Part shown: positions 3,888-41,685 of the stretch, piece by piece
How the letters are laid out: each line of letters begins with the position of its first letter
Position numbering within the stretch: position 1 is the stretch's first letter
DNA from: an uncultured Rickettsiales bacterium
GTDB taxonomy: Bacteria; Pseudomonadota; Alphaproteobacteria; Rickettsiales; UBA8987
Direction: 5' to 3'
Assembly (NCBI GenBank): GCA_964424715.1
Contig: CAYRJW010000003.1
Coordinates: 1-49,173 of the forward strand
Length of the DNA: 49,173 nucleotides
The notes under the pieces: model-generated
Told to the model about the DNA's origin: nothing
The model's database searches: none
The model's input: the letters and a program-made list of their open reading frames with translations, nothing else
Translations under genes and position numbers: made by a program

Positions 3888-5039
3888 TTATGCGAAGTAA
3901 TTTTCGATGATCTTTTTATAAATATTTTTCAGATTCACCAGATCTTCAACTGAAGTTTTTTCATCAATTTTGTGGGCGGTGGTATTGATAAGTCCGAACT
4001 CTACTACCTCGGCATAATCCTTGATGAACCTTGCATCAGAAGTGCCACCGGTGGTGCTGCGCACGGGCTTCCTGCCTATAACTTCCTTGACCGAACTCTC
4101 AACCACATCAGCCAGTATTCCTGGTTTGCTAAGGAAGGCTTCACATTCGCCTTTACGGGCTTCAAGCTCGAATTTTTCAGAATGTTTATTGCAGATATGC
4201 ATTACATGCTTACGAACGGATTTTGATGAATGAAGATTATTGAAACGGATATTGAAACGCGCCGATGCCTTCTCAGGAACAAGGTTTGCGGTGGTGTTGG
4301 CGACATCTATCGAAGTAACTTCAAGGTTGGAAGGCTGGAAGAATTTATTGCCTTTATCTATCCTTTCGGAGATCAGTTCGCTTAATATTTTTATTATTAT
4401 CTTGTTCGGATTTTTTACTTTTTCCGGATATGCCACATGGCCCTGAAGGCCGTGAACTGTAAGCGTGAAACTGATACTGCCACGGCGGCCTATCTTCATC
4501 ATATCGCCAAGAATTTCGGCATTGGTAGGTTCACCGACTATACAGGAATCTATTTTTATGCCTTTTTCAGAAATGAATTTTAACATTTTCACGGTGCCGT
4601 TTATGGAATCCGCTTCCTCATCGCCAGTGATCAGAAATGATAATTTACCTTTATTGAAACCGGGGTTCTCTTCCAGAAATTCGGAAGTAGCGGCAACCCA
4701 TGCGGCAATGGAGCCTTTCATATCGACCGCGCCGCGGCCGATAAGATTTCCGTTAACTATCTTCGGGGAAAAAGGCGGCACTGACCATAATTTATCATCC
4801 CCGCCCGGTACAACATCAGTATGGCCGGCAAAGCATAGATTCTTTCCTGATGTGCCGAAACTGGCATAAAGATTACCCACTTCATAGGATTCATCACCGG
4901 AGAAATTATGCGTGTGACATTCAAAGTCGAGTTTTCCGAGAGTTTCCGAGACCAGCGCTATAGCGCCATTATCAGCCTCACCGGAGATACTTTTCCGGGC
5001 TATTAATTCAAGGGCGAAATCTACAACTTCAATTGCCAT
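3888..5039 (-). CDS. dapE: succinyl-diaminopimelate desuccinylase
   Basis: 383 aa M20 peptidase. CFAGHTDVVPGG, GRGAVDMKGSIAAW and ITGDEE motifs; length and layout typical of DapE. Confidence 0.9.
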   Translation of the reverse strand: MAIEVVDFALELIARKSISGEADNGAIALVSETLGKLDFECHTHNFSGDESYEVGNLYASFGTSGKNLCFAGHTDVVPGGDDKLWSVPPFSPKIVNGNLIGRGAVDMKGSIAAWVAATSEFLEENPGFNKGKLSFLITGDEEADSINGTVKMLKFISEKGIKIDSCIVGEPTNAEILGDMMKIGRRGSISFTLTVHGLQGHVAYPEKVKNPNKIIIKILSELISERIDKGNKFFQPSNLEVTSIDVANTTANLVPEKASARFNIRFNNLHSSKSVRKHVMHICNKHSEKFELEARKGECEAFLSKPGILADVVESSVKEVIGRKPVRSTTGGTSDARFIKDYAEVVEFGLINTTAHKIDEKTSVEDLVNLKNIYKKIIENYFA

Positions 5040-5054
5040 GATATTAATTTTTGG

Positions 5055-6629
5055 TTACAGCTTCAATGTTTTAGGTTTGGTCTTTCTCATCCAGATCATG
5101 ATGAATAATTTCGTAAGCGTTATCGCCGCGAACATTGAACTTAATATACCGACTGTAAGCGTTACAGCAAATCCTTTCACCGGCCCTGCACCATAAGTAT
5201 ATAGCAGGAAGGCCGCTATCAGCGTTGTTATGTTAGAATCTACCACTGTACGGAAGGCCATGGTGAAACCGCTATCAATACCGGATATCGGGCTTTTGCC
5301 GTTGCGGTATTCTTCCTTGATACGCTCGAACACCAGAACGTTCGCATCAACACCCATGCCCATTGTAAGCACCAGACCGGCTATACCAGGCATGGTGAGC
5401 GTTGCACCGAACACCGAAAGTATCGCAAGGATTATTATCATGTGCATTATAAGTGCAAGGTCGGCAAACAGGCCGAACAGGCCATAGACGGCGATCATTA
5501 ATATAGTGATGAACAGGAACCCGACCAGCGTCGCACGCTTGCCAGCATCAATGGAATCCTGACCGAGTGAAGGGCCGACTGTGCGTTCTTCTACAATGGT
5601 AAGTGGCGCAGGCAGCGCGCCGGAGCGCAGAAGCAGACCTAATTCATTGGCTTCAGGAACGGTGAAATTACCGGTGATTATACCGGATCCGCCAAGTATC
5701 GCGGAATTGATGCGCGGCGCGGTTATCAACTTGCCATCCAGAACTACAGCGAATGGTTTACCGATATTTTCTGAAGTGGTCTGGGCGAATTTCTTGCCGC
5801 CGAGATTATTGAATTTGAAACTCACCACCGGCTGCGCCTGATCGAAGGTAGCGCGGGCATCGATAAGCATATCACCGCTTATCTCGACATTCTTCTTCAC
5901 CAGATATTTCTGCTGTGATGCCGGATCCATGTCAGGAACTATCATCTCATCAGCCTGCGGAAATTTGGTGGTGATGGCAAAAGGATCATCATTATTCATT
6001 AAGTGGAATGTCATTTTCGCGGTCTTGCCGAGGAGTTTTTTCAGTTCATCAGGATTCTGTAATCCGGGAACTTGTAATAAGATACGTTCTTTGCCCTGCA
6101 TCTGGATTATCGGCTCACGCGTGCCTGTTTCATCAACACGGCGGCGGACTATCTCGATGGATTTTTCAATGACATCGCGCTGCATTGAGGCAAGCACATC
6201 ATCAGAATAGGATATTTTAAAATTATTATTATCATCAGTATCCACCGAAAGATCGCGGGAGATAGATTTAAGCTTCTCAATAGCAGCGTCTCTGGCTTTG
6301 CTATCACGCAGGGTCAGCGTGATATACGGGTTCTTATTTTCATCCTGCTTAATGCCGAGATTTATATAGCCTATCTTTTCCTTGCGGAAATTTTTACGTA
6401 TATCATCCAACACCGAAGCGAAATGCTCCTTCAGATAATGATTGAAATCCACCTTTAGCAGAAGATGTGAACCGCCCTGCAGATCAAGCCCCAGCTTTAC
6501 CGTGCCAGATGGCAGAAAACTATATTCAGCGCGCTGCTGCTCGCTCAGGAAATTCGGCGCAGATTGCAGCACAGCCCAGATACAAACGCCGATCGCTACA
6601 AATATCTTCCATTTTGGGAAATTCATCAT
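5055..6629 (-). CDS. secD: protein translocase subunit SecD
   Basis: 524 aa. LGLDLQGGSHLLLKVD near the N-terminus and a C-terminal 6-TM block with GIAGLVLTMGMGVDANVLVFERIKEE. It sits directly downstream of yajC. Confidence 0.92.
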   Translation of the reverse strand: MMNFPKWKIFVAIGVCIWAVLQSAPNFLSEQQRAEYSFLPSGTVKLGLDLQGGSHLLLKVDFNHYLKEHFASVLDDIRKNFRKEKIGYINLGIKQDENKNPYITLTLRDSKARDAAIEKLKSISRDLSVDTDDNNNFKISYSDDVLASMQRDVIEKSIEIVRRRVDETGTREPIIQMQGKERILLQVPGLQNPDELKKLLGKTAKMTFHLMNNDDPFAITTKFPQADEMIVPDMDPASQQKYLVKKNVEISGDMLIDARATFDQAQPVVSFKFNNLGGKKFAQTTSENIGKPFAVVLDGKLITAPRINSAILGGSGIITGNFTVPEANELGLLLRSGALPAPLTIVEERTVGPSLGQDSIDAGKRATLVGFLFITILMIAVYGLFGLFADLALIMHMIIILAILSVFGATLTMPGIAGLVLTMGMGVDANVLVFERIKEEYRNGKSPISGIDSGFTMAFRTVVDSNITTLIAAFLLYTYGAGPVKGFAVTLTVGILSSMFAAITLTKLFIMIWMRKTKPKTLKL

Positions 6630-6631
6630 GA

Positions 6632-7039
6632 TTATTTTTTCTCTTCTTTTTTGTCAGCTTTTTTGTCGGACACAAGTTCAGTAACTGATGAGCGCAGAAC
6701 TTTGACCTCAACGCCGCTGGCTATTTCAACCTCGATGATCTTCTCACCTTCAGGCGCTTTGGTCACCGTACCAACGAAACCTGCTCCGGTTATTACCTTA
6801 TCGCCTTTTTTAAGAGCGGATACCAGTTTTGCATGGTCCTTGAACTTTTTTTGCTGCGGGCGGATAAGCAGGAAATAGAATATCACGAATATTATGCCAA
6901 GCTGAACCACCAGCCCTTCAACACCACCCGGTGCAGCAGGCGCACCGGCAGCAGCCGGGCTTGTGCCGATAGCGGCGGTATCCTGAGCAATACTTATTAC
7001 AGGGAGCAGATAGGCGATAAGGGCGAATATATATTTCAT
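6632..7039 (-). CDS. yajC: preprotein translocase subunit YajC
   Basis: 135 aa. IIFVIFYFLLIRPQQKKFKDHAKLVSALKKGDKVITGAGFVGTV is the YajC core. There is an extended Ala/Pro-rich N-terminus and a Lys/Glu tail. Confidence 0.88.
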   Translation of the reverse strand: MKYIFALIAYLLPVISIAQDTAAIGTSPAAAGAPAAPGGVEGLVVQLGIIFVIFYFLLIRPQQKKFKDHAKLVSALKKGDKVITGAGFVGTVTKAPEGEKIIEVEIASGVEVKVLRSSVTELVSDKKADKKEEKK

Positions 7040-7182
7040 TGGTTTTATCCTTTATTTTCTAGGCCCTTATATTGCAAGCAAAGCCGCAGATGTAAATAAA
7101 TTTTTTCAATATTTTGTATTTACATTCCGGCGTGAGATACTATTTTCACTTTTAGTTATTAAATAAATCATGAGTTTTAGAC

Positions 7183-7686
7183 ATGTTACGACCTTTAATT
7201 CTGACACTTGCCATATTACTGCTGGCCCCGGCCACATTCGCACAAACATTAGGCGGAACCTTCAAGAACTGGGCGTTCTTCACCTCTACGGAAGATGGCC
7301 GGAAGGTCTGTTATATAACCTCTAACCCGATCAGGAAAACCGGCACTTACAGGATCCGCGGCGATGTCTATATGATAATCACCTATCGCGGCGCTGGCTC
7401 TACGCCTGAGGTCAGCATCGATACCGGCTTCCCTTACAAGAGCGGCAGCGAGGTCGATTTTGTGATAGATGGCAGGAAATCCTTCAAGTTCTTCACCTCT
7501 GCCCAGACTCCGCAAATGGCATGGGCCAAAGATGAACAGGCTGACAGAACAATAATTGAAGCAATGAAGCGTGGCGGCAGGGTTAACACCAAAGGCACTT
7601 CCACCCGCGGAACTGTTGCGCAGGATACTTATTCCCTTTCAGGAATTTCAGCGGCATACAGCAAAATGGTTGCTGCCTGCCAGTAA
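7183..7686 (+). CDS. exported protein, invasion-associated locus B (IalB)-like
   Basis: 167 aa. Signal peptide MLRPLILTLAILLLAPATFAQ. WAFFTSTEDGRKVCYITSNP and a C-terminal Cys resemble IalB-family proteins as I recall them; not verified. Confidence 0.45.
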   Translation: MLRPLILTLAILLLAPATFAQTLGGTFKNWAFFTSTEDGRKVCYITSNPIRKTGTYRIRGDVYMIITYRGAGSTPEVSIDTGFPYKSGSEVDFVIDGRKSFKFFTSAQTPQMAWAKDEQADRTIIEAMKRGGRVNTKGTSTRGTVAQDTYSLSGISAAYSKMVAACQ

Positions 7687-7695
7687 AATATATTT

Positions 7696-8301
7696 ATGAT
7701 AATTCTTGCAGTTGATACCGCACTTGGCCAGGAAAGCGTCGCTATCCTGCGCGATGGCGAGGTGATCGCATTCTCGCAAGGCACCGAAAACTCCCTTCAG
7801 GCTGAACGGCTTTTTGAACATATCAGCAATGTTTTTGCCAAGACGAAAATGGGATATGAGAATATAGACCATTTCGCGGTCGATATCGGCCCGGGAAGTT
7901 TCACCGGTATCAGGATAGGCCTGAGCGCCATACTTGGGATATGTCTGGCACAGGGCAAGGAAATGCTGGGCATCAGCAGCCTTGAGGCGCTCGCATATAA
8001 AAGTGGTAAAAATAAAGTTCATACAGTTCTTAATGCCGGCAGGAATGAATTATATTCGCAGGAATTCGAGATCAATAACAGTATAATAAAAAATATCTCA
8101 AAAGCGGAACTGCTGAGGCTTGATTCACTTACTTCCGCCGATATAGGTAATCTGGCGTTCTGCGCCGTTCAAACTCTTCCTGATGCAAGGGATATCGGTA
8201 TTGCGGCTAACCTCATGATAAAAAATAATATAGCTGATTTTTCCAGAAAAAGCCCTATATATATAAGGCAACCTGATGCAAAAATAAAAGTTAAGAATTA
8301 A
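7696..8301 (+). CDS. tsaB: tRNA threonylcarbamoyladenosine biosynthesis protein TsaB
   Basis: 201 aa. ILAVDTALGQESVAIL and FAVDIGPGSFTGIRIGLS motifs (YeaZ family). Confidence 0.88.
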   Translation: MIILAVDTALGQESVAILRDGEVIAFSQGTENSLQAERLFEHISNVFAKTKMGYENIDHFAVDIGPGSFTGIRIGLSAILGICLAQGKEMLGISSLEALAYKSGKNKVHTVLNAGRNELYSQEFEINNSIIKNISKAELLRLDSLTSADIGNLAFCAVQTLPDARDIGIAANLMIKNNIADFSRKSPIYIRQPDAKIKVKN

Positions 8302-9659
8302 TGTTCGATAGGCTTACACAATCAATTTCCAACTCTTTCTCCAAACTCCGGGGCAAAGGGTTATTGAAGGAAGAGGACATCAGCGAAGCCATGCGCGAGA
8401 TACGCATCGCCCTGCTGGAGGCCGATGTGGCACTGCCGGTGGCAAAGGAATTCATTGAAAAGGTAAAGGCAAAATCACTGGGTGAGGAGATCGTAAGGTC
8501 CATTTCCCCGGCGCAGATGATAGTGAAGATAGTTCACGATGAACTCACAGAAATTCTGGGCGGCGAGGAAATAAATGATGTTAACTTGAACACCAACCCA
8601 CCAGTTGTGATATTGGTGGCTGGCCTTCAGGGCTCCGGCAAAACCACAAGCTGCGGCAAGCTTGCGCATTATCTCAAAAGTAAGAAACATAAAAAGGTCT
8701 TGCTTGCATCGCTGGATATTTACCGCCCGGCCGCACAGCAGCAGCTGGAAATTCTCGGCAAGCAGATAGGCGTTGAAAGCGCAGAGATAATCGCCGGGCA
8801 GAAACCTAAAGATATAACCGAGCGCGCCCTCAAAAAGGCCCGCACTGAGGGTTTTGATGTTGTTATACTCGATACCGCCGGCAGGCTCCACATCGATAGT
8901 GAGCTGATGGATGAACTGAAGGAAATTGAAAAAATCTCTAATCCGACTGAAACATTTTTAGTTGGCGATGCGATGACCGGGCAGGATGCGGTGAACATCG
9001 CCCGCGAATTTGCCGCGCAGATAAAACTCACCGGGATAATACTTACCCGTATGGATGGTGATGCAAGGGGTGGGGCGGCACTCAGCATGAGGTCCATCAC
9101 CGGCTGCCCGATAAAATTCGTGGGGCTAGGCGAAAAAATATCCGAGTTCGAACCGTTCCACGCCAAGCGTATAGCAGGCAGGATACTGGATATGGGCGAT
9201 GTGGTCGCCTTGGTTGAAAAAGCGCAGGAAAATTTTGATCAGGACGAAGCGGAAAAAATGATGAAGAAACTGCAAAAAGGCGGTTTTGACCTTAACGATC
9301 TCTATAAACAAATTAAAATGATCCAGAAAATGGGCGGCGTTTCAGGCATGGCGAGTTTTATCCCCGGCCTCGCAAAAGTAAAAAGCCAGATCGAAGATGC
9401 CAATATCGACAAAAATGTTTTAAAGAAACAGCTTGCCATAATAGAATCCATGACCACGCAGGAGCGCCGCTTCCCCAAGGTTTTGAGTGGCTCCCGCAAG
9501 CGCAGGATAGCAAAAGGTTCCGGCACCACCGTTCAGGAAATAAACCAGCTCATCAAACAGCACATGCAGATGAGCAAGATGATGGGCAAGATGAAAGGCC
9601 TGAACCCCGCAAAACTCGGCAATATGGCCGCAATGAAAAATCTGTTCAACGGAATGTAA
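8301..9659 (+). CDS. ffh: signal recognition particle protein Ffh
   Basis: 452 aa. N-domain, SRP54 GTPase (GLQGSGKTTSCGKLA, DTAGRL, TRMDGDARGG) and a Met-rich M domain. The start overlaps the tsaB stop (TAATG). Confidence 0.95.
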   Translation: MFDRLTQSISNSFSKLRGKGLLKEEDISEAMREIRIALLEADVALPVAKEFIEKVKAKSLGEEIVRSISPAQMIVKIVHDELTEILGGEEINDVNLNTNPPVVILVAGLQGSGKTTSCGKLAHYLKSKKHKKVLLASLDIYRPAAQQQLEILGKQIGVESAEIIAGQKPKDITERALKKARTEGFDVVILDTAGRLHIDSELMDELKEIEKISNPTETFLVGDAMTGQDAVNIAREFAAQIKLTGIILTRMDGDARGGAALSMRSITGCPIKFVGLGEKISEFEPFHAKRIAGRILDMGDVVALVEKAQENFDQDEAEKMMKKLQKGGFDLNDLYKQIKMIQKMGGVSGMASFIPGLAKVKSQIEDANIDKNVLKKQLAIIESMTTQERRFPKVLSGSRKRRIAKGSGTTVQEINQLIKQHMQMSKMMGKMKGLNPAKLGNMAAMKNLFNGM

Positions 9660-10093
9660 TGAAAAATATTTTTATCATTTCCATTTTATTTTTAATTTCA
9701 GCCTGCGCTGGCGGCAACCAGTTCGCCTATGACCGCAAGACCTCCTGTGAGATAAATTACGGCCATAACGGCATTTCAATAATCGTCGATAAAGATAATA
9801 TACTGATAAAAAATAACCGACAGGATGGATTTGGCAGCGTCTTAAGCGCCCGCACGGCTGATAGGGTATATTATACTTCCTCAAGATATTTCAGTAACGG
9901 AGACATTGATGATATCATAAATAGCCTGAGAAATTCCCAAAAACTTTACCTGCAATGGAAACTCCCCGGCACTAATTATTCTTCTGGAGATATCCGCACC
10001 AATATTATTGATGTAGCGGATTTCGGTAAAGAATTGGATCAGTGCCTGACAGCACAGCATCATTCATATACCGGCAAAGAACCCGTTCAATAG
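9659..10093 (+). CDS. hypothetical lipoprotein
   Basis: 144 aa. Lipobox LFLISAC-AGG. The start overlaps the ffh stop (TAATG). The 3' end overlaps the convergent DUF2063 gene by 30 nt. Confidence 0.6.
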   Translation: MKNIFIISILFLISACAGGNQFAYDRKTSCEINYGHNGISIIVDKDNILIKNNRQDGFGSVLSARTADRVYYTSSRYFSNGDIDDIINSLRNSQKLYLQWKLPGTNYSSGDIRTNIIDVADFGKELDQCLTAQHHSYTGKEPVQ

Positions 10094-10804
10094 CCATTTT
10101 TGCAGGAACTGCGGCAGCATTTCACTTGCGAGAGCGGAATTTAATTCCTCAACAGCTTCATCAACTGATCTACCTTCAAACAGCTTTTTAAGCAACATGA
10201 ACTCTTCTTCTATCAGATAATGCCTTTTAACTTCGTTATTATGGCGGACTATGAAAATATAATTTTTTTTCTTTGCTATCTTTTTAGGGTTTTGCTCTTT
10301 ACGGAATTCCTGCAGATATTTTTCTACATCATACTCAAATGCCAGCATGTTGGATGCTATCCTTGGTTTAAAACGGAATTTGTCTAACTCAGCTTCGCCA
10401 AAGGTTGTAAGGGCTTGCGCTTCAAGGCTTGTGCTGTCTGGCTTCAGAAATATCTCTGCGATATTGGATTCAAGGACGGCTAGTTCTTTTGCCTCCTTAT
10501 CGATGTTTTTTGCCTGCAGATATTTTTCGAATTTGAACGGGTAGAAATCCAGACTGTAAAATTCTGAATTATTATTTTCAACGAAATCAGCAATTATCTT
10601 TTCAGACTTTTTAGCACCCAGATAATTGCATAATGCCGGGTAATCGATGCGGACAGCACCCGAAAGCCTGATACGGTAACCATCTATATAAACTGCAAGC
10701 TGCTTCTCCCGTGATATTCGCGGGTTATTTTTAAGCAGCGGCAGCATTTCTTTGGGCTTATTTTTTATTATGGAATCGTTAAGTCTTTTCATGGTTTCTT
10801 TCAT
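10064..10804 (-). CDS. bufC: DUF2063-domain protein (BufC-like RiPP partner protein)
   Basis: 246 aa. N-terminal QLAVYIDGYRIRLSGAVRIDYPALCNYLG pattern typical of DUF2063. The start overlaps the stop of the upstream DUF692 gene by 4 nt. Confidence 0.75.
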   Translation of the reverse strand: MKETMKRLNDSIIKNKPKEMLPLLKNNPRISREKQLAVYIDGYRIRLSGAVRIDYPALCNYLGAKKSEKIIADFVENNNSEFYSLDFYPFKFEKYLQAKNIDKEAKELAVLESNIAEIFLKPDSTSLEAQALTTFGEAELDKFRFKPRIASNMLAFEYDVEKYLQEFRKEQNPKKIAKKKNYIFIVRHNNEVKRHYLIEEEFMLLKKLFEGRSVDEAVEELNSALASEMLPQFLQKWLLNGFFAGI

Positions 10805-11616
10805 ACAAAACTCCGGGCTTTTTCTATTTCAGCCTGTAATACGCTGAAATCTGGGATGTTATCGTCCCATTCCACCATGGTGGAAATTTTACCCTTGGTA
10901 GAAATGGCGTATTTATATAGCTGCCACACTTCATCTATCACATGGTCGGAATGGGTATCTATTATTATATCGCCCTTGTTAGTATGTCCGGCCAGATGTA
11001 TCTGGACTATCCTTTCAGCCGGAATGGAATCTATATATTTCTTTGCATCGAAATTATGGTTGAAGGCGCTCACATAAATATTATTTATATCCAGCAATAT
11101 ACCACAATTGGCTTTTTCGGCCATTTGCACCATGAATTCATTCTCACTCATATGCGAGCTTTCAAACTCTAAATATGATGAGGGATTCTCCAGTATTATA
11201 TTTCGCCCTAAAATATCCTGAACTTTTTTTATCCGTGTAACAATATGTTCAAGCATTTTGCCCGTATAGGGAACCGGCAGCAGATCATGTGTATTAGCCC
11301 CACCAACGCCTGTATAGCACAGATGATCCGATATCCATGGCGTATTTATATGTTCAGCAAGCTTTTTTACTTTTTGCAGGTAGTTTGTATTTAGTTCATC
11401 GGTAGAACCTATGGAAAGAGAAACGCCGTGCATCACTATCGGGTAGGTCTTCCTCAGCTCGGCGAGGAATTCCCAGTAGCCCTGATGGGTATCTATATAA
11501 TTTTCGGTGATTATCTCGAACCAGTCCACGGCCGGGGTGTTATCAAGTATATAATCATAGTGGGGCGAACGCAGCCCCAGCCCGAAACCTAAATTTTTAT
11601 ATCCGAATTTATTCAT
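10801..11616 (-). CDS. bufB: DUF692 / multinuclear non-heme iron oxidase (MNIO, MbnB/BufB-like)
   Basis: 271 aa. GLGLRSPHYDYIL, VDWFEIITENY, VMHGVSLSIGS, WISDHLC, LLDINNIYVSAFNH and IHLAGHT are the UPF0276/DUF692 signature blocks. Confidence 0.9.
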   Translation of the reverse strand: MNKFGYKNLGFGLGLRSPHYDYILDNTPAVDWFEIITENYIDTHQGYWEFLAELRKTYPIVMHGVSLSIGSTDELNTNYLQKVKKLAEHINTPWISDHLCYTGVGGANTHDLLPVPYTGKMLEHIVTRIKKVQDILGRNIILENPSSYLEFESSHMSENEFMVQMAEKANCGILLDINNIYVSAFNHNFDAKKYIDSIPAERIVQIHLAGHTNKGDIIIDTHSDHVIDEVWQLYKYAISTKGKISTMVEWDDNIPDFSVLQAEIEKARSFV

Positions 11617-11655
11617 AAAAAAAGCCTGACCATTTGATAATAGCCAGGCTTTTTA
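11617..11655 (-). terminator. intrinsic-terminator-like attenuator hairpin between precursor gene and MNIO gene
   Basis: Minus-strand RNA reads AAAAAGCCUG-16 nt-CAGGCUUUUUUU and is followed directly by the bufB ATG. The only purine-rich SD-like sequence (CAGG) lies in the 3' arm of the stem. Confidence 0.6.
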
Positions 11656-11677
11656 AAAATATAATAATTATTTAAAA

Positions 11678-11956
11678 TTACATTTTTACTTCAGCTTCTA
11701 CAACCTTGCCACCTTCTTTGGTGCAGACTTCAGCAGATTCAGCGAAAGCCCACTCATTGGCATCGTTATCAGCTTTAGACTGCCCGGCACATGAGTGAGA
11801 GCCATTCGCAGATTTGCAATCATTCTTGCCGGCCTTTGCTATACCAAGGCATTTTACTTTCGCCTCTGCTGCTGCAGGTGCCGCTGCATCCTGTGCAATT
11901 GCAGAAGTTGCCGCTAAAATGCTTATTACCGCCGCTGATGCTAATAATTTATTCAT
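11678..11956 (-). CDS. bufA: DUF2282-family Cys-containing RiPP precursor (bufferin BufA1-like)
   Basis: 92 aa. Sec signal peptide (MNKLLASAAVISILAATSAIAQ). The core has four Cys in DUF2282-type contexts (KCLGIAKAGKNDC...HSCAGQSK...EVCTK). It sits immediately upstream of the DUF692 and DUF2063 genes. Confidence 0.85.
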   Translation of the reverse strand: MNKLLASAAVISILAATSAIAQDAAAPAAAEAKVKCLGIAKAGKNDCKSANGSHSCAGQSKADNDANEWAFAESAEVCTKEGGKVVEAEVKM

Positions 11957-12063
11957 ATCCTCTCCTTATTGTTAATAGACAGCATCTATTATCAAATACT
12001 GCCTTATCAAGTCCTATAGATATTTATTTTAAGTACAATATGTTTTTGAAAGCAGAGCAATAA

Positions 12064-14013
12064 TTATATCCCAAAACCCGGATGGCCTATCTCATCACTG
12101 ATCTCTTTCACCGGCTCAACGAGGTTCTTTTCTATATATCTTACTAGTTGGGCAACCGCATCATCAACCGAAAGCTTGCCGGTATCTATGACCAGATCGG
12201 CGTTCTTCGGTTCCTCAAACGGTGCAGAGATACCTGTAAAATCCTTGATCTCACCGGATATCGCTTTTTTGTACAGACCTTTCGGGTCGCGTTTTTTGCA
12301 GACCTCCACATCAGCCTTGATGAAAATACTGTGATAGGCATCGCCGGCGGCAACGCGCGCACGGTCCCTGTCCTGCTTATAAGGCGAGATAAATGCGGTG
12401 ATGACTATGACACCGGCATGCGCAAATAATGATGCCACCTCACCAACGCGGCGGATATTCTCGCTTCTGTCCTTTTGCTCAAAGCCGAGATCGGAATTCA
12501 GGCCGGTGCGGATATTATCGCCATCCAGCACATATACCTGATAACCTTTTTCAAAAAGCTTGGTCTGCAGCGCGTAAGCAATAGTGGTCTTGCCGGAGCC
12601 AGAAAGCCCGGAGAACCACATTACGCCACCCTTATGACCATTCGCAAGTGCGCGGCGGTTTACATCTATCTTAGATTCAAACGGGTGAAGATTGGTTCCT
12701 TTCGGATGTGTTTTTGTGCGCTGGTCAGAAAAACATTTTAGGTAAATTATGCCACCGCATAAAGTGCGGTAATTCTCAACTATCACAAAACGGCCGGTCT
12801 GCACATTGGAGGAATATGCGTCCAGAGTTGCGATACCGCGTATCCTGAATACAACCTCCGCAACGGAATTTTTAGCAACTTCCTTAACATCACCGGAAAT
12901 TTTCAGATCGCTGGTATCGACAACTTTTTCGATCTTCTTAACTTCCGCCTGATATTCGGAGGTGTTGAGCTTGATAAGATATTTATTACCCTCACGGATA
13001 GGCTCATCACCCAGCCAGAATATCTTGCCGCGGAAAATATTGGTGAGTACTGGCGCATCCTTGATATGAGAGACCACCTGCCCGCGCTCGGCAAATATCT
13101 GTTCCGACAATGTTATCCCGACAGATTCACCGGAGACCGCCTGCGATCTCTTAGATTCCGGCCATGTTTCGATCGATGAAACTTTTACTACACGGTTAGA
13201 TGGCGAGAACACGATATCATCACCAACTTTTATCGTTCCAGATTCTATACGGCCTGCGATTATCCTGCGCTCATCGAATTTGTAAACATCCTGCACCGGC
13301 ATGCGCAGCGGCAGTTTCTCAAGCGTTTGGCGGACCTTGAATTCATCAAGTGCTGCAAGTATGGTAGGCCCTTTATACCATTTCATATTCTCAGATCTAG
13401 CAGTCACGTTATCACCATCACGACCGGAAATAGGGATTATGAATGTAGGCTCAACACCTATCTCTTTCAGATATGCACGATATTCTTTTTCAATTTTATT
13501 GAATTCCTCTTCGGAATAACCGACAAGGTCCATCTTGTTGACTGCTACCGTTATCTGCGGAACGCCGAGCAGGGAAAGTAAATATCCGTGACGCTTGGAC
13601 TGCTCTTTCACACCTTCTTTTGCATCTATCACCAGAACCGCGGCTTCACTCTGCGCCGCGCCGGATATCATGTTCTTCAGAAATTCCTTATGGCCCGGAG
13701 CATCTATTATTACATAATTTCTTTTATCAGTTTTGAACCATAACTGCGTTGTATCAATTGTAATGCCCTGATCGCGCTCTGCCTGTAATGCATCAAGCAG
13801 GAATGAATATTCAAAAGGCATTCCGCGCTTTATACAGCTTTGTTTTATCTGCTCCACCTTGCCATCCGGCAGGGAATCCGTATCATAGAACAGGCGCCCG
13901 ATAAGGGTTGATTTACCGTGGTCAACATGTCCTACTATCACTATTTTCATCTGCTCTTTAGAATCGGAGTTGAGTGATGAGAGTTGAGAGTTGAGTTTTT
14001 TATTTGCAGGCAT
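12064..14013 (-). CDS. cysNC: bifunctional sulfate adenylyltransferase subunit 1 / adenylylsulfate kinase (CysN-CysC fusion)
   Basis: 649 aa. N-terminal translational-GTPase domain ([23 protein letters not shown]). C-terminal APS kinase domain ([21 protein letters not shown]). Confidence 0.93.
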
Positions 14014-14034: not shown

Positions 14035-14709
14035 TTACTTTAAAGCTTCCAGTATAAGCTCCGCGCATTTTTTTGAGGATTGCGGGTTCTGGCCGGTTAT
14101 TAAATTAGCATCCCTGATTGCAAATTCTGAAAAATCCGCGCCGCAGGAAAATTTCCCGCCGAGCTGTTTTAATTTTGTTTCAAGCAGGAAGGGAACTTTC
14201 TTATCTCCTCCGGCCTTCACTTCTTCGCTATCGGTGAAACCGGTTATTTTCCTGCCGCTTATAATTGAGGTTCCATCAGCTTTTATGGCAGGAACAAGGG
14301 CCGCAGGACCATGGCATACGGCGGCAATTATCTTTCCGCTTTCAAAGAAGCGGCCAAGATTCTCTTTTAAATATTCATCTTCTGGCAGATCTACCATTGC
14401 GCCGTGGCCGCCGGGGAAGAATATTGCATCATACTTGCTGAATTCCATACGCGATAATATCTTTGTGCGCCCGATCTTTTTCATGGCAAGCAGGTCCTTC
14501 TGGAATTTCCTCACTGACTCCGGCAATTTTTCATTATCCAGAGAAAGTGGCTCTATTGGCATCTTACCGCCCTTTGGCGATGCTATATCCACCTGAATCT
14601 TTTTTTCACTCAGCAGATAATAAGGCGTGGAAAGTTCTTCAAACCATACTCCGGTCTTTTTCTTTCCCAGCTTTTTTGCTGATGTAACTATGAATAATAT
14701 TTTTTTCAT
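14035..14709 (-). CDS. DJ-1/PfpI (type 1 glutamine amidotransferase-like) family protein
   Basis: 224 aa. FFPGGHGAMVDL and the nucleophile-elbow-like IAAVCHGPAAL motif. The start codon overlaps the cysD stop (TAATG). Confidence 0.8.
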   Translation of the reverse strand: MKKILFIVTSAKKLGKKKTGVWFEELSTPYYLLSEKKIQVDIASPKGGKMPIEPLSLDNEKLPESVRKFQKDLLAMKKIGRTKILSRMEFSKYDAIFFPGGHGAMVDLPEDEYLKENLGRFFESGKIIAAVCHGPAALVPAIKADGTSIISGRKITGFTDSEEVKAGGDKKVPFLLETKLKQLGGKFSCGADFSEFAIRDANLITGQNPQSSKKCAELILEALK

Positions 14710-15560
14710 TACATGTATCCATCTGCCCTTAAACGCTCGAAGGATGATTCATCCTCATCAGCACCCATAGGGCGTCCTGAACGTTCTGAAACTTTTGTAA
14801 CGCGAAGCTCAGCGATTATCTCTTCAATGGTTGAGGCTGGACTTTCAAGCGGCCATGTTATTCCTTTTTCACCAAGTGAGCGGAAGCGCATTATCTTGCC
14901 GCCGAAATCACGGCCTTCAAGCACCTCATATTTTCTTGCCAGATATAACGGCACGATAGGGATATTCTCGCGCTGTATGTAAAGCCATACATCAAGCTCC
15001 GTCCAGTGCAGAAGCGGGTGGATGCGAACATGGGTGTTAGGCGGAAAATCGGTCATGAACTGGTCCCAGAATTCAGGTGGCTGGTCTTTCACATCCCACG
15101 CACCTTCGGAATCGCGTGGCGAAAAATAACGTTCCTTGGCACGAGTACCTTCCTCATCGCGGCGGATACCTGCAACTATCGCATTGAAACCATTCTTACG
15201 GATAACATTTTTCAAGCCACCGGTCTTACGCGCTGCAACACGGGCAGAATGCGGCAATGAAGCATCGGTAGTTTCAATGGCCGGGCAGACCTCTGAGATA
15301 AAATCTATGCCCCATTCTTTTACATATTTATCACGGAAGGCATATACTTCATCAAATTCCAGTTCAGTATCACAATGAATAAGTGGGAACGGAACCTTTC
15401 CAAAAAAGGCCTTACGCGCCAGATGTATCATCACGTTAGAATCCTTCCCGAAACTCCATAACATTGCCATGTTATTTATTTTATTGAATGCCTCACGGAA
15501 AATATAGATGCTTTGTGCTTCTAATTTATCCAGATGGTCCATATGTTTCTTTTCAGCCAT
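14709..15560 (-). CDS. cysD: sulfate adenylyltransferase subunit 2
   Basis: 283 aa. PAPS-reductase-fold N-terminus (LEAQSIYIFREA, WSFGKDSNVMIHLARKAF) and the typical CysD C-terminus (RADGYM). Confidence 0.93.
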   Translation of the reverse strand: MAEKKHMDHLDKLEAQSIYIFREAFNKINNMAMLWSFGKDSNVMIHLARKAFFGKVPFPLIHCDTELEFDEVYAFRDKYVKEWGIDFISEVCPAIETTDASLPHSARVAARKTGGLKNVIRKNGFNAIVAGIRRDEEGTRAKERYFSPRDSEGAWDVKDQPPEFWDQFMTDFPPNTHVRIHPLLHWTELDVWLYIQRENIPIVPLYLARKYEVLEGRDFGGKIMRFRSLGEKGITWPLESPASTIEEIIAELRVTKVSERSGRPMGADEDESSFERLRADGYM

Positions 15561-28389: not shown

Positions 28390-30249
28390 ATGCTACTTAC
28401 ACCACAGAACGAGGCAGAATTCTATTTATACTCCATCACCAAAAGCCGTGATTTCTGGCGCAGTTCCTGCGAGGCATTAGGAATAGTATTTAAAAACGAT
28501 TTTAAACTGACCAACGAAAATATAGTAGATGCCACTAACCCAAAACACCCAAAATGGTTCACCGGAGCAGCACTCAATATCGCCGATAGCTTTCTTAAAA
28601 AAGCAAAAACAAATCCTGATAAGATAGCTATAATTTACGAAGATGAATCCACTAAGAAAAAAAATATAACCTACCGCGAACTTGATGAATTAAGCAATAA
28701 ATTCGCCAATGCACTGCAAGATAGCGGCATTAAGAAAGGCGATCACATCGGGCTATGCACTGCAGGTATGAATGTGGAATCAATCGCCGCATATCTGGGT
28801 GCAATGAAGTTCGGTGCAACCATAGTATGCCTTCTGCCAACCTCCCAGAAAAGTGAATTGCAGTTGCGCATAGACCAGTTGCCTGCAAAACCAAAACTCA
28901 TGGTAACGCAGGATTACGGTAATAAAAATAACAACCGGCTGCACCCTTTATATGAGAATATCCGTGAACTCGGAATTCCCTCTATCGTGATAAATGATAA
29001 TTCTCTAAAACCAGTGACCATTCGTGAAAATGATAAGACCTTCAATGAATTCATTAATGCTGCTTCGGAAAAATTTGAATCTGCTTCCTTATCACCGGAA
29101 CATCATGTGGCGGTACTATTCTCCTCTGGAACAACCGGAACACCCAAAGCCATCCCGTGGTTTGCCGATTGTTATATAAAAAGCGCCAATGATGGCAGGC
29201 TGCACCATCTGATGAACGACAATGATATTCTCTGCTGGCCAAGCAATTTCGGCTGGATGATGGGTTCTTTTGATATCGCTTCGGCATTTATTAATGATGC
29301 AACCCTTGCAGTGTTTGAGGGCAACCCGGTAAGCAGGAATTTTGCTGCCTTCATCGAAAAGAACGAGATCACGAAATTCGGCATCATACCCGCCTTCGCC
29401 GAAGCGTGGGAAAGAACCGGCCTGTTCAGAAAACGTGATATCACTACAGTAAAGATATTCATGTCGACCTCAGCCGCATCGAACCCGGAAAATTACAGAT
29501 ATATACAAAAACTTCTTAACAATGCGCATCCATGCGAATATTCCGGCGGCACAGAAATTGCAGGCGCTCTGAATACATGCCTGCCTTACTCTCCGGTCGG
29601 CGCTTCAGAATTCAACACTCCCGCCTTCGGTACAAAACTACATTTTATCCCGCATGCAGAAAATAATAACCTTGCCGACCTGTTCATAGTTGTTTCCAAT
29701 AAGGGTGGATATACTCCGCCAATGGGCCTTTCAAGGATTCTGCTGAACAAAGACCATGAAAAAGAATATTTCACCGGTGAAACAAACAGTAATGGCGAAG
29801 CGCTGAGAAAGCACGGCGATACAGTAAATTTCACCGGCAAAATTTTCTCCGGCGATATTGAAGATATAAATGATCTGAGATTCACCTCCTCCGGCAGAGC
29901 CGATGACATAATAAATATAAACGGCAATAAAGTTGGGGCGGATATTCTGGAAGGCTGGATAAGAACAGGTATAAAAGGAAAATCTTCCGAATCCATGATC
30001 GCAGATCTCGCCGTTTTCCAGACCGAGCCTGCATTTGGAAATAAGGTAATATTCTATGTAATGATCAATAAAACCCCCGGAACTGAAAACCCGAAGGACA
30101 TAATCACCAGAGAATTCAAGGATGCCATAAAGGTCAATAATGCCTTATTCGCCGCTATCGATGATATTGTATTTGTCGATAAGATCTCTAAAATGGGTTC
30201 CAAGGTACAAAGAAAGGAAATGAGAAAGAATTACAACCCAAGATCATAG
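28390..30249 (+). CDS. AMP-dependent synthetase/ligase (acetyl-/acetoacetyl-CoA-synthetase-like)
   Basis: 619 aa. WFTGAALNIADSFL N-terminal block, AMP-binding motif LFSSGTTGTPKAI, YSGGTEIAG, SSGRADD. Substrate not inferable. Confidence 0.75.
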   Translation: MLLTPQNEAEFYLYSITKSRDFWRSSCEALGIVFKNDFKLTNENIVDATNPKHPKWFTGAALNIADSFLKKAKTNPDKIAIIYEDESTKKKNITYRELDELSNKFANALQDSGIKKGDHIGLCTAGMNVESIAAYLGAMKFGATIVCLLPTSQKSELQLRIDQLPAKPKLMVTQDYGNKNNNRLHPLYENIRELGIPSIVINDNSLKPVTIRENDKTFNEFINAASEKFESASLSPEHHVAVLFSSGTTGTPKAIPWFADCYIKSANDGRLHHLMNDNDILCWPSNFGWMMGSFDIASAFINDATLAVFEGNPVSRNFAAFIEKNEITKFGIIPAFAEAWERTGLFRKRDITTVKIFMSTSAASNPENYRYIQKLLNNAHPCEYSGGTEIAGALNTCLPYSPVGASEFNTPAFGTKLHFIPHAENNNLADLFIVVSNKGGYTPPMGLSRILLNKDHEKEYFTGETNSNGEALRKHGDTVNFTGKIFSGDIEDINDLRFTSSGRADDIININGNKVGADILEGWIRTGIKGKSSESMIADLAVFQTEPAFGNKVIFYVMINKTPGTENPKDIITREFKDAIKVNNALFAAIDDIVFVDKISKMGSKVQRKEMRKNYNPRS

Positions 30250-30401
30250 AAATCCTATCTCCCCATAACCCTCATGGTACGCGCATTAGGCACCCGCTTT
30301 AAGCCTTAGCGAACTAATTGATGTTCAAAACGATAAAAAATAAATAGTCTAACTTTAGGCTTCCAAATTCCGCTCTTTATCCTTATAACAAACTAACTTC
30401 C

Positions 30402-30441
30402 GGGGACGTAGCTCAGCTGGATAGAGCAAGTGATTCCTAAT
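30402..30441 (+). pseudogene. 5' half of tRNA-Arg(CCU), truncated after the anticodon loop (attL side)
   Basis: ggggacgtagctcagctggatagagcaagtgattcctaat is identical to nt 1-40 of the intact copy at 31701-31777. Similarity ends at 30442. Confidence 0.9.
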
Positions 30442-30602
30442 GGGCGGGTCTAAAACTTGTATCTAGTTGTTTTTATATAAGAATTTAGATGCAGTTATAA
30501 GCCCAAGATGTAAAAGTAAGGTAATGGTAAGGTTTATTGTCGGAAGGTTTGCAGTATTAAAAATACTACACCAGAATGTTAATCTTACCAGTAACGATGA
30601 GG

Positions 30603-31652
30603 TTATATAACAATTTCAGGAGGTTCTCCTACTGGCAAATTTAGTTCCTCAGAATTTGTATATTGTATTCTACCATCATCAAAAACTTTCTTGATAGATG
30701 CTAACTTAACCTTAAAGCCATGTCGCAATATATACTTACCAAATTCCCTTAAATAATTATCATTAGATTTGGCTTTACACAAGTTAATGAGCTCTTTTCC
30801 AACGCCTGTTAAATTAAAAGATTGTATCTCTAATTTTTTAGAAGGATCATCATCTTCAATAATTAAAACTCTGTCTTTACTTGTTAAAGAGCTTAGAAAC
30901 CTATCACTAGCCAAAGAGATAAATTCATTGTTCAATGCTATAGACTCTACCCCAACTAAAACTCCTATTTCTTGCATTTTTAATAATAAACTATAGGGGA
31001 TTCCATTTGAAGCTAACCATTTATCATCTCGATAAACTATTCCAGACACAGCAAAAGGGGCAAGTCGGGCAACATCTTCGGCATCTTTTTGTGATGCATT
31101 TTTTAAAAATTCTAGAGTTCTCAGTGAAAAACTGCCAGGGACTTTTGTTTCTCCCGCCAACACTTTACCCCAAAGACTTTGAAGGTCTTCGGAAGATACC
31201 TTGCTTGCACAATCCCGCCAACGATGAATCCAATCATCATTAATCGGCATTTCTGAGGGCTCCTCTTGGTCATTCTCAAGCTCTGCCTCAGCTACTAATA
31301 TAGCCTTAGCAACATTAACTTCTTTTCGTATTTCATTAATAATATTTTGAGAATTTATAGCTTTAGTCAAAAAATCTCTTTCCATAATTTGTTCTGGTAT
31401 TTTATCTGATGGTAAAACTTTTTTTGATTTATCAGATAATAGTCTAATACTTAAATCATTTTCTAAAACAGCTTTACCTTGCCTTATATCTTCAGCAATT
31501 TTTTCAGCCTGAGCTATTCTAAGTGTATTCTCTACCTGGACATCAGTTATAGCTTCGCCTACTCGACGTATTTGTCTAGGCTCTAACCAGCCACCAATGC
31601 CATTATCAACACAAGAGCGCCACATTTTAATCATTAATTTCTGACCAAGCAT
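30603..31652 (-). CDS. DUF2806-like hypothetical protein (island cargo)
   Basis: 349 aa. The block PINDDWIHRWRDCASKVSSEDLQSLWGKVLAGETKVPGSFSLRTLEFLKNASQKDAEDVARLAPF matches my recollection of the DUF2806 core. The N-terminal half looks coiled-coil. It starts 48 nt downstream of, and is co-oriented with, the intact tRNA. Confidence 0.55.
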   Translation of the reverse strand: MLGQKLMIKMWRSCVDNGIGGWLEPRQIRRVGEAITDVQVENTLRIAQAEKIAEDIRQGKAVLENDLSIRLLSDKSKKVLPSDKIPEQIMERDFLTKAINSQNIINEIRKEVNVAKAILVAEAELENDQEEPSEMPINDDWIHRWRDCASKVSSEDLQSLWGKVLAGETKVPGSFSLRTLEFLKNASQKDAEDVARLAPFAVSGIVYRDDKWLASNGIPYSLLLKMQEIGVLVGVESIALNNEFISLASDRFLSSLTSKDRVLIIEDDDPSKKLEIQSFNLTGVGKELINLCKAKSNDNYLREFGKYILRHGFKVKLASIKKVFDDGRIQYTNSEELNLPVGEPPEIVI

Positions 31653-31700
31653 AATATTAACCTTAATTACGAAGTAATAATAAATAATATATTATTGAAA

Positions 31701-31777
31701 TGGTGGGAACGAGATGATTCGAACATCCGACCTAGTGATTAGGAATCACTTGCTCTATCCAGCTGAGCTACGTCCCC
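31701..31777 (-). tRNA. tRNA-Arg (anticodon CCU), intact, CCA-encoded, inside the element
   Basis: The reverse complement folds as a 77-nt cloverleaf: acceptor ggggacg/cgttccc (one G-U pair), D arm gctc/gagc, anticodon arm agtga-ttCCTaa-tcact, variable aggtc, T arm ggatg-ttcgaat-catct, discriminator a, then cca. Confidence 0.93.
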
Positions 31778-31967
31778 AGAGACTTAGTTTCGCGAAGCTA
31801 TACCAAATATTATAAAATGCAATTTTAAACTTAGTAATTTTTTCTTTTATACCTGCATTTATGGCAGTTTTTAGCGATATTTCTTATAAAATCATCTATA
31901 AGAACAAACCCCTTTAACTTTCAAAAATTTCAAACTATGGTTGAAACCGAAGCGTATTATGCGCTTT

Positions 31968-32138
31968 GGGGCGTAAGAACCTCACTTAGTTCGGCAGTAG
32001 CATCTGCCGTTATCAAACTGCCATCTCAACCTTGGTTGGGGTGGTGGCGTTATATAATAGGCTCGCGCTGAAAGCGTCACGGTCATGACTAAGTGACTTC
32101 TTAACACCCCGGCACCATTGCGAAAAAGCACTGGTGCT
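31968..32138 (+). ncRNA. candidate structured RNA or 5' leader upstream of the island lipoprotein gene
   Basis: A long closing helix of about 21 bp (31968-31990 with 32088-32110) encloses hairpins CGGCAG-tagcat-CTGCCG (31992-32009) and CCATCTCAAC-cttg-GTTGGGGTGG (32021-32044). The latter has two G-U pairs that are valid only on the + strand. A further hairpin GCACCATTGC-gaaaaa-GCACTGGTGC (32112-32137) follows. Class unknown. Confidence 0.45.
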
Positions 32139-32167
32139 GATTGTTATAAACAATAAGGGAGTTCGAG

Positions 32168-32788
32168 ATGATCATTACAAAAAAATTAGTTCCTACAATT
32201 ATATTAACAGTTGCCCTTTCTGGTTGCGTGAGCAAAGGCTGGAATGTTTCGCATCTCCATGACGAATTTACCAATGATAATATTTGTAGGGTAGAGCGGA
32301 ATAGTCCTGAAATGCGCGAGTTTGCAAGAAATTGGACTAGGACATTTTTTTCTTCCTACTTTTTTGCTGAAAAATATAACGATCAGGTGCGGGCTGGTAT
32401 AAGATCCGAGCCGCAAATACCGATAGCTGGCGATGTGCAGATAAAAATTGGCAGTAAGCTGGTAACACTGACATCAGATGATACGCCGATAGATGTAGCA
32501 CCTCATATACCTCAATACAAAATGAGTAAAGAGGTTGAGAAAACCTTGGGTGCTGGTTTTAATACCAGCATGAAACAAATGACCGATAGCATCCAAAAAT
32601 TAGGATCACCCTATAGAGCCTTGACCGGACAGAAAGCGATAAACCTGTTACGGGATATGGCAAATACCCAAGGGGAAATAAAATATAGAACCGTGGGGTT
32701 CAATTCCGCGCTATCGACCACTGGTACTATAACCACTGGTCCGGAATTCGTTAAGGCGTTAAACGAATGTGGTATAGATATTAACTAG
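32168..32788 (+). CDS. hypothetical lipoprotein (island cargo)
   Basis: 206 aa. Lipobox LTVALSGC-VSKG and an AAGGGAG RBS 7 nt upstream of the ATG. No family recognised. Confidence 0.6.
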   Translation: MIITKKLVPTIILTVALSGCVSKGWNVSHLHDEFTNDNICRVERNSPEMREFARNWTRTFFSSYFFAEKYNDQVRAGIRSEPQIPIAGDVQIKIGSKLVTLTSDDTPIDVAPHIPQYKMSKEVEKTLGAGFNTSMKQMTDSIQKLGSPYRALTGQKAINLLRDMANTQGEIKYRTVGFNSALSTTGTITTGPEFVKALNECGIDIN

Positions 32789-32969
32789 CACATTCTTATT
32801 TTAACGGCGCTACAGCTATGGTTTTTGCTTTTTACAACCCACCCTACTGGAAGATAGATAAAGTTAGCCAGCGAGGAGAAAAGCCTGCCATTAACTTTAT
32901 CCAACTCTCACGCGCGCGTATAGTAAAAACCCCTAAGTATATAAAGTTAGTTTATCTGGTTGATACACC

Positions 32970-33041
32970 TAGTGCCCCTCAATTTCTTAAAAATTTTTTA
33001 AAGATTAAGAATTAAAATTAATTTAATATTGAGGGGCACTA
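32970..33041. repeat. 14-bp perfect inverted repeat with AT-rich 44-nt spacer between convergent genes
   Basis: tagtgcccctcaat (32970-32983) and attgaggggcacta (33028-33041). Lies between the lipoprotein stop and the primase stop. Confidence 0.6.
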
Positions 33042-33055
33042 AAATTAGGGGGTAC

Positions 33056-35257: not shown

Positions 35258-35258
35258 A

Positions 35259-35558
35259 TTAGTTACCTTTTATTTTTTGATTAATTGTGTTGGTTTTTGA
35301 ATTTTTAAGCATGAATTCATCGAGGTGCTCGCGCTTGTAACGAACCGCCTGACCACAATTAATTTTTATAAATTGCGGTCCTTGTCCTGTAATGCGCCAG
35401 CTTTCAAGGCGCTGTTTGCTTAAATTAAGATACTTTGCAGCTTGTTCTGTATTGAGATATTCAGTTTGAGAAAAAGAATTATCTTGTATCCTCTTTACTG
35501 CTTCCTCAATTGATCTTTGAATGAACTTTTCAATTATTGAATAATCGATACTTTGCAT
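35259..35558 (-). CDS. AlpA/excisionase-family helix-turn-helix DNA-binding protein
   Basis: 99 aa. YLNTEQAAKYLNLSKQRLESWRITGQGPQFIKINCGQAVRYKREHLDEFM is the excisionase-type HTH pattern. Located 1 nt upstream of the primase gene. Confidence 0.75.
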   Translation of the reverse strand: MQSIDYSIIEKFIQRSIEEAVKRIQDNSFSQTEYLNTEQAAKYLNLSKQRLESWRITGQGPQFIKINCGQAVRYKREHLDEFMLKNSKTNTINQKIKGN

Positions 35559-35841
35559 ACACTACTCCTACTAACTTTATTAGACCATTGTCGCGGGTCT
35601 GTTAGTAGCAGAGGTAGATAGTATGCTATTCACATAGTGAACTATCTCGTTACGCTTTTTCAGTAACAAAGGGTCAGGATTCCTCTCTTCTTATGACATG
35701 AAGTTGCCGATACATGCAGTGCCTGCCATGCAGCTCGGGTTATTAGCCTATGTACATCGGCATTTAGAATACCATCACTATCGTGTAAAGAAGTTTTTTA
35801 ATCATTTGAATTTTATTTTTCTGACGAATCAGAAATGCATC

Positions 35842-37035: not shown

Positions 37036-37413
37036 GTATTTCTCCTTTTCTGAACAAAATTATTGTTCAGAGGTCGAGGAAAGCAATGAAAACCGGAGAG
37101 TTCACAACTTCCTTCAGCCAAAACTTTTTAATATACATGTTTTTAACCCAATCAACATGTTTTTTGTTCATCAGGATTTAAGAATTAGTGACAAATGGAA
37201 GGGTAAGATATTGTTATAGAATGGTTTTAAAATTCGGCGACTTTGACACAGTTAAACTTTAGAAGCGGATTTTTTTAGTTAACTTATGTTTATAAGAAGG
37301 TACTTTTTCATTATTAGGGCTTGTATGCTCAAAGTACTTCTGACTTTTGTTATATTCTATTGGAATTTGCAACTTGGGAGGGTATTATCAAGCGAATAGG
37401 GTGAGGGAAAATT

Positions 37414-39450: not shown

Positions 39451-39458
39451 ACTGATTT

Positions 39459-39752: not shown

Positions 39753-39770
39753 GGTAATGGTAAGGTTGCG

Positions 39771-39873: not shown

Positions 39874-39885
39874 CCGAATACAGCC

Positions 39886-39931: not shown

Positions 39932-40000
39932 TTTCAGTAACCTTACCGGTCAATCTTCATATTTGCGGGCTATAGGAATTGATACCCTGTTTCACCAAAC

Positions 40001-41682: not shown

Positions 41683-41685
41683 TTT

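Follow-up and report, generated by a model that had tools for sequence, protein, structure and literature searches.

A DoxX-less Buf1-type bufferin operon from an uncultured Rickettsiales bacterium, with a terminator-like hairpin between its precursor and maturase genes

Bufferins, which were described only in 2024, are among the largest families of RiPPs, peptides that are made by the ribosome and modified after translation. Here we analyse a three-gene locus within a stretch of 49,173 nt (hereafter the window; contig CAYRJW010000003.1 of assembly GCA_964424715.1) from an uncultured Rickettsiales bacterium. The minus strand carries bufA (11678–11956), coding for a 92-aa precursor of the DUF2282/BufA1 type, bufB (10801–11616), coding for a 271-aa bufferin maturase of the multinuclear iron oxidase (MNIO, DUF692) family, and bufC (10064–10804), coding for a 246-aa DUF2063 (HvfC_N/PME1) partner protein whose C-terminal domain is RRE-like. 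The locus is a Buf1-type bufferin operon with the gene order bufA–bufB–bufC and represents a new member of an already known class, for which the name 'captophorins' has recently been proposed (PMC13097082). A sequence-only reading of the window had pointed to a bufferin trio at 10064–11956, and profile hidden Markov models and fold comparisons bear this out for each of the three proteins.

The small open reading frame (ORF) bufA scores 60.1 bits against the Pfam DUF2282 model, for which the cut-off is 22.4; the accession of this model is PF10048, and the 'PF09996-like' entry that had been suggested for it is incorrect. PF10048 is present in all 120 of the BufA homologues listed, some of which bear the NCBI name 'BufA1 family periplasmic bufferin-type metallophore'. 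The NCBIfam model for BufA2 yields 33 bits with the precursor, which is under its cut-off of 60. By inspection, residues 1–21 of BufA constitute a Sec-type signal peptide (MNKLLASAAVISILAATSAIA, followed by QD) that begins with MNK, continues with the hydrophobic stretch LLASAAVISILAATSAIA and ends in SAIA, giving an A-x-A cleavage site followed by Q. This N-terminal pattern is conserved in an alignment of 18 DUF2282 sequences (alignment A1, consisting of the window BufA and 17 homologues). The four cysteines of the precursor (C36, C47, C56 and C78), already remarked on in the sequence-only reading, are invariant in the same alignment, as is the motif KC.G..KAG.N.C...H.CAG...D..W...C..GG in which they are embedded. 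In Buf1, modification falls on the two central cysteines, and a disulphide joins the outer pair (PMC12452194). By analogy, C47 and C56 would be the modified residues here and C36–C78 the disulphide.

BufB matches PF05114 (MbnB_TglH_ChrH) with 360 bits in Pfam and the NCBIfam equivalog model NF050167 (MNIO_BufB) with 361.7 bits, above a cut-off of 310. It aligns with the solved DUF692 protein PDB 3BWW (E = 1.4e-45) and also with TglH and MbnB. In the alignment with 3BWW, the motifs HG, DH, EN, D..N, AGH, DTH and E.D, with their conserved His, Asp and Glu residues, are all in place. BufC scores 37.4 bits against PF09836 (DUF2063; cut-off 27.2), and a sequence search of the PDB with this protein returned no meaningful match. 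An AlphaFold2 model of BufC, built on 12 homologues, has a mean predicted local distance difference test (pLDDT) score of 89.2. With Foldseek, the best match of this model is 3DEE (NGO1945), with E = 1.1e-6 and template modelling (TM) scores of 0.63/0.76. The model also superposes on TglI (8HI7/8HCI), and both superpositions extend over nearly its full length (219 alignment columns for 3DEE and 276 for TglI). In addition, the C-terminal beta3/alpha3 part gave weak Foldseek matches to the RRE protein TbiB1. Each of the three proteins thus shows what defines a Buf1 cluster, and we regard it as very probable that the locus is an operon of this type.

The junction between bufA and bufB is occupied by an element that resembles an intrinsic terminator (11617–11654, minus strand; Figures given are coordinates of the window). 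It consists of a 16-bp stem with arms at 11619–11634 and 11639–11654 (inverted repeat I2; A5-GCCUGGCUAUU paired with AAUGGUCAGGC-U5), a 4-nt loop and a tract of seven U residues at 11623–11617. The U tract directly touches the bufB ATG at 11616, and the bufA ORF, including its stop, ends at 11678. The minimum free energy of the junction region is −26.2 kcal/mol (z = −5.4 compared with dinucleotide shuffles); the hairpin taken alone gives −18.3 kcal/mol. The hairpin was not listed by a simple terminator scan and was found with a separate, purpose-made detector. Its identity as a dispersed repeat of the repetitive extragenic palindromic (REP) type is ruled out by its single occurrence in the window, and a search of the region against Rfam yielded no known RNA family. 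The sequence-only reading had called attention to a terminator-like hairpin with a U7 tract at this place, and the folding energies as well as the conservation described below agree with it.

Six homologous junctions (the window and the related loci L001, L002, L039a, L039b and L042; L numbers designate related loci throughout) were folded jointly with RNAalifold. The same 15-pair stem was obtained for all six, with compensatory changes at 4 of the 15 pairs, and variation among the aligned junctions was lowest in the U tract, which is almost unchanged. The position of the bufB ATG, 0–4 nt after the U tract, recurs in L002, L004–6, L039b and L042. When the purpose-made detector (a hairpin of −10 kcal/mol or lower plus a U run, at most 140 nt upstream of bufB) was applied more widely, 17 of 30 related loci had a terminator-like hairpin before bufB, compared with 50 of 583 random control windows (8.6%) from the same loci. 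At distant loci the hairpins occupy the same place and are unrelated in sequence, and they accompany precursors of the Cys-Lys type as well. Terminator-like versions are found in operons of Sphingobium and Chitinimonas; the structure is seen in L034 and L043. L039 has a stand-alone bufA, placed before a sigma-factor gene, that is closed by a hairpin nearly identical to that of the window. Because of this arrangement, the hairpin appears to behave as the bufA terminator whatever gene comes next.

Differences between the layouts were noted among the Cys-Lys-rich precursors. Those of L007–L009, L016 and L032 end in ...(Y/F)ND and are followed by bufB after 9–21 nt with no hairpin, and the shorter Cys-Lys precursors that end in ...GSKK or similar are mostly followed by a strong terminator. 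Two regulatory layouts thus seem to track the precursor subtype. A further variant is found on a Legionella pneumophila plasmid (L033; NZ_CP021280, 2137–4397), where an unannotated small precursor gene is followed by MNIO and DUF2063 genes and a DUF2282 gene comes after the enzymes. Genes for YceI and cytochrome b lie downstream, and the hairpin behind the first precursor gene has no U tract.

The translation signals of bufA and bufB differ sharply. The Shine–Dalgarno (SD) sequence of bufA (11959–11967, minus strand; AAGGAGAGG) pairs with the anti-SD at −9.3 kcal/mol, which ties for first place among 46 window genes. The only SD-like sequence of bufB, CAGG, reaches −3.6 kcal/mol, a median value (rank 24 of 46), and about half of the window genes have no recognisable SD. 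In effect, bufB has essentially no SD. We also computed the cost of opening the start region (positions −20 to +12) for 45 window genes. Opening the bufB start requires 17.4 kcal/mol, the second highest value (rank 2 of 45), compared with 4.0 kcal/mol for the open start of bufA (rank 38 of 45). The computed costs thus support the idea that the bufB start is occluded on read-through transcripts. The sequence-only reading had proposed such an occlusion by way of a hairpin that sequesters the sole SD of bufB; the occlusion itself is supported by the opening cost, but the explanation through the SD is not, since CAGG is a median match. Further downstream, bufB and bufC share an ATGA overlap, which indicates that bufC is translationally coupled to bufB.

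No DoxX gene adjoins bufC, and a tblastn search of the whole window detected none; its queries were five DoxX proteins of relatives, each of which had been checked as DoxX by Pfam. The absence noted in the sequence-only reading is therefore real, but it is not the peculiarity it was taken for. An adjacent DoxX gene was present in 15 and absent in 17 of a first set of 32 related loci. Among 12 operons of the DUF2282 type (the window, L001, L002, L004–6, L039–L044 and L046), DoxX is adjacent in 7 and absent in 5. In Caulobacter, neither the modification of bufferin 1 nor its function nor copper protection depends on DoxX, and BufB and BufC are required; moreover, the buf2 operon has no DoxX (PMC11626156). 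Because DoxX is dispensable in Caulobacter and missing from many related loci, its absence is ordinary and leaves membership in the Buf1 class unaffected.

A second absence, which went unmentioned in the sequence-only reading, is that of sigF–nrsF and of a SigF-type promoter, both of which are carried by many relatives. With the proteins of relatives as tblastn queries, no homologue of the extracytoplasmic function (ECF) sigma factor or of NrsF was detected in the window. The SigF promoter is GTAACC-N16-CGAA (PMC3511200). Allowing a spacer of 15–16 nt and at most one mismatch, a promoter of this type is located 79–98 nt upstream of bufA in L002, L004–6, the second copy of L039, L040 and L041. 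It is missing upstream of bufA in the window (within 200 nt), in L001, in L042 and in the first copy of L039, and the sole match to the motif in the whole window, at 25659, is at chance level. In L040 (GCA_041396965.1), the promoter before bufA reads GTAACT-N16-CGAA (at about 4903–4928), and there is no sigF or nrsF within 5 kb. The divergent neighbours in this locus are msrA and msrB; in L046, msrA, msrB and a thioredoxin-like gene come after DoxX. These neighbourhoods may link the two operons to the repair of oxidative damage.

Directly upstream of the bufA SD in the window lies an 11-5-11 palindrome (11969–11995, minus strand; inverted repeat I10), TTGATAATAGA-TGCTG-TCTATTAACAA, and small palindromes of differing sequence are found at the equivalent place in L042 and L039a. 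The palindrome may serve as an operator in place of SigF control, or it may form a hairpin of the 5' untranslated region (UTR).

The organisation of L039 (ENA ERZ26165887 contig, 5001–8514) suggests how the window locus could have arisen. There, a first bufA (copy a) and its terminator are followed by sigF (ECF sigma), nrsF, a SigF promoter, a second bufA (copy b), a hairpin, bufB and bufC; a convergent lipoprotein gene and then ffh come after bufBC. The window BufA and copy (a) of L039 share 82% identity, and the hairpins are nearly the same. Past the U tract, the window resembles the junction between bufA(b) and bufB of L039. The window locus looks like a reduced form of an L039-like arrangement, from which sigF–nrsF–bufA(b) was possibly lost by deletion or recombination between the two terminators.

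From these observations we propose the following mechanism. BufA would be matured and exported as in Caulobacter bufferin 1: BufB, together with BufC, would convert Cys47 and Cys56 into 5-thiooxazoles, the precursor would be exported by Sec and its signal peptide cleaved, the Cys36–Cys78 disulphide would form and the mature, protein-like peptide would sequester periplasmic copper. Both the thiooxazole chemistry and the copper binding are carried over from that system by analogy. As for expression, bufA would be efficiently transcribed and would be translated from the best ribosome-binding site of the window. Most transcripts would stop at the hairpin–U7 element, so that bufBC would be reached only by the read-through fraction. 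On the read-through RNA, the same hairpin would hinder initiation at the SD-less bufB start, and bufC would then be translated by coupling to bufB. The copper-binding product, needed in stoichiometric amounts, would as a result far outnumber the catalytic maturase. In this scheme, the hairpin probably keeps the peptide in excess over the enzyme; we lean towards attenuation at the hairpin, with partial termination and the translational effect as its presumed components. Taken as a whole, a functional minimal bufferin operon with graded expression is the likely interpretation of the locus.

The hairpin could, on the other hand, serve mainly as an RNA-stability element, as do REP elements and the hairpins between genes of the Rhodobacter puf operon. 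A full bufABC RNA would then be processed, the bufA part would be shielded from 3' exonucleases, and the excess would come about by differential decay. A 16-bp stem placed 3' of bufA suits such a role, and the strong hairpins with poor U tracts in L028 and in the Legionella plasmid locus fit stabilisation better than termination. Against it, at least five U residues directly follow the stem in most conserved hairpins, and the invariance of the U tract among the aligned junctions is the signature of intrinsic termination. We consider this explanation unlikely as the main role of the element; it is compatible with termination, and both would have the same outcome. It is still less probable that bufA and bufBC are transcribed as units of their own, with the hairpin acting as a complete terminator and a bufBC promoter situated either in the hairpin region or within bufA, in its 3' part. 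The stand-alone bufA of L039 would speak for such a division, and stand-alone DUF2282 genes are common (L045; PMC12452194). However, the bufB ATG follows the U tract without a gap, which leaves no space for a 5' UTR or a promoter downstream of the terminator, and the same tight layout recurs in L002, L004–6, L039b and L042. Moreover, in a consensus scan the minus strand from 11946 to 10990 contained no sigma-70-like site, and no SigF motif lies in the vicinity of the cluster.

It appears highly improbable that the cluster is now a remnant, decaying or silent, which is no longer expressed or no longer gives rise to a functional metallophore. Such a reading would account for the lack of DoxX, sigma factor, NrsF and SigF-type promoter in the window, and for the lack of any recognisable promoter. 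It is contradicted by the three intact ORFs, which retain the family-invariant residues, by the conservation of the BufC C-terminus even within the overlap with the lipoprotein gene, and by the dispensability of DoxX (PMC11626156). In addition, the same reduced arrangement is found in the same context in the distant locus L042, whose BufA is 57% identical. Because arrangement and context have been kept over this distance, purifying selection on the reduced locus is implied.

Several observations weigh against a minimal, hairpin-attenuated operon all the same. The hairpin is not universal: about one-third of the alphaproteobacterial loci have spacers of 4–22 nt with no hairpin, and short spacers of this kind are shared by plasmid-borne operons (Salmonella, E. 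coli, Burkholderia and Methylomagnum) and by operons of Hydrogenophaga. The stem could be so strong that nearly all transcripts end there, in which case bufBC expression would be very low. The sigma-70-like matches upstream of bufA are weak and occur at chance frequency, and an alignment of the bufA upstream regions with those of L001, L039 and L042 revealed no conserved promoter; bufA may be transcribed by read-through from cysNC. Finally, DoxX and sigF–nrsF could be encoded elsewhere in the genome, outside the 49-kb window, which is part of a contig of about 56 kb.

The wider proposal that follows from the comparison of loci is more tentative. It holds that a hairpin–U-tract between precursor and MNIO genes is a conserved and so far undescribed device of many bufferin/captophorin operons, setting the precursor:enzyme ratio by termination and by occlusion of an SD-less start, and that in this genome the operon has also been freed from SigF/NrsF control by a deletion between two terminators and would hence be constitutive or differently regulated. 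We found no report of an intercistronic terminator in the bufferin literature searched. This combined proposal is a possibility that we would not yet place above its negation.

On its 3' side, the operon meets a convergent ORF on the plus strand (9659–10093; 144 aa) that encodes a putative lipoprotein with the lipobox LISAC. Its start ATG overlaps the ffh stop codon (TAATG; ffh, 8301–9659), and its 3' end overlaps bufC by 30 nt (10064–10093), as had been described from the sequence. The ORF matched no Pfam or NCBIfam family, and a counterpart next to ffh is missing in L001 and L042. We nevertheless count it as a real, conserved gene because its product is 44% identical to that of the gene at the same position, adjacent to ffh, in L039. 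The 30-nt overlap stems from the 9-residue C-terminal tail of the lipoprotein, which is not conserved, whereas the C-terminus of BufC on the opposite strand is conserved.

Upstream of bufA and on the same strand lies cysNC (12064–14013, minus strand), with adenosine 5'-phosphosulphate (APS) kinase and EF-Tu GTPase domains in Pfam. It is itself preceded by a gene of the DJ-1/PfpI family (14035–14709, minus strand) and by cysD (14709–15560), so that the bufferin genes are indeed positioned between the ffh region and the sulphate-assimilation operon. The simple terminator scan recognised no terminator in the 107-nt spacer between cysNC and bufA. The context in L042 is the same (cysD, DJ-1, cysNC and bufABC, then convergent ffh and tsaB), including the insertion of the DJ-1/PfpI gene between cysD and cysNC. 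That bufA is functionally tied to the sulphate-assimilation operon was considered and rejected: the adjacency of cysNC and bufA is shared by L042, but L039 has no cysNC between DJ-1 and bufA. We therefore treat the adjacency as synteny and not as coupling.

BufA, BufB, BufC and the lipoprotein are all singletons when clustered at 90% identity. The closest genomes are metagenome-assembled genomes labelled Rickettsiales or Alphaproteobacteria, with BufB identities of at most 79%. Elsewhere in the window, the G+C content falls from about 0.45 to 0.33–0.36 at approximately 30000–42000, and the drop starts beside tRNA-Arg(CCT) (31701–31777). This low-G+C stretch may be a genomic island.

The locus adds a bufferin from poorly known, uncultured alphaproteobacteria and brings no new chemistry or gene content. 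The maintenance under selection of bufABC clusters that have neither DoxX nor sigF–nrsF, in a conserved context, lends support to regarding these three genes as the functional core. The terminator offers a simple, testable account of how a metal-binding product could be made in excess over its maturase. It also has a practical side, since bufBC may come out poorly in heterologous expression from native DNA owing to the intercistronic terminator.

Among known systems, one of the closest to the locus is the bufferin 1 operon of Caulobacter vibrioides, buf1ABCD (CCNA_03363–03366; Leprevost et al. 2024, PMC11626156). The two have in common a DUF2282 precursor with a Sec signal and four cysteines, an MNIO BufB and a DUF2063 BufC, in the order A–B–C. 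Unlike buf1, the window has no bufD (DoxX), no neighbouring sigF–nrsF and no GTAACC-N16-CGAA promoter, and it has a strong hairpin–U7 between bufA and bufB, a feature that goes unmentioned in the bufferin literature searched. In its three-gene composition (precursor, MNIO and DUF2063), the locus is like buf2 of C. vibrioides and other DoxX-less clusters (PMC11626156), but its precursor is of the DUF2282 (Buf1) type with four cysteines, whereas that of the Buf2 type has six. The BufC model superposes on the MNIO partner proteins NGO1945 (3DEE, the gonophorin PME1 partner) and TglI (8HI7), although their sequence identity with BufC is only 12–16%.

For the regulatory element, the nearest parallels are found in other RiPP operons. 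Partial terminators lie between the precursor and modification genes nisA–nisB of nisin and mccA–mccB of microcin C. In these systems, as proposed here, a precursor gene with a strong ribosome-binding site is followed by a stem–loop and a U tract, the enzymes are expressed by read-through and the substrate is in excess. The attenuator design is thus already familiar and comes as no surprise. The window operon differs from both in its RiPP class and in its periplasmic product, which is predicted here from the sequence. It differs also in that no gap separates its U tract from the start codon that follows, and the hairpin should hence hinder bufB initiation as well.

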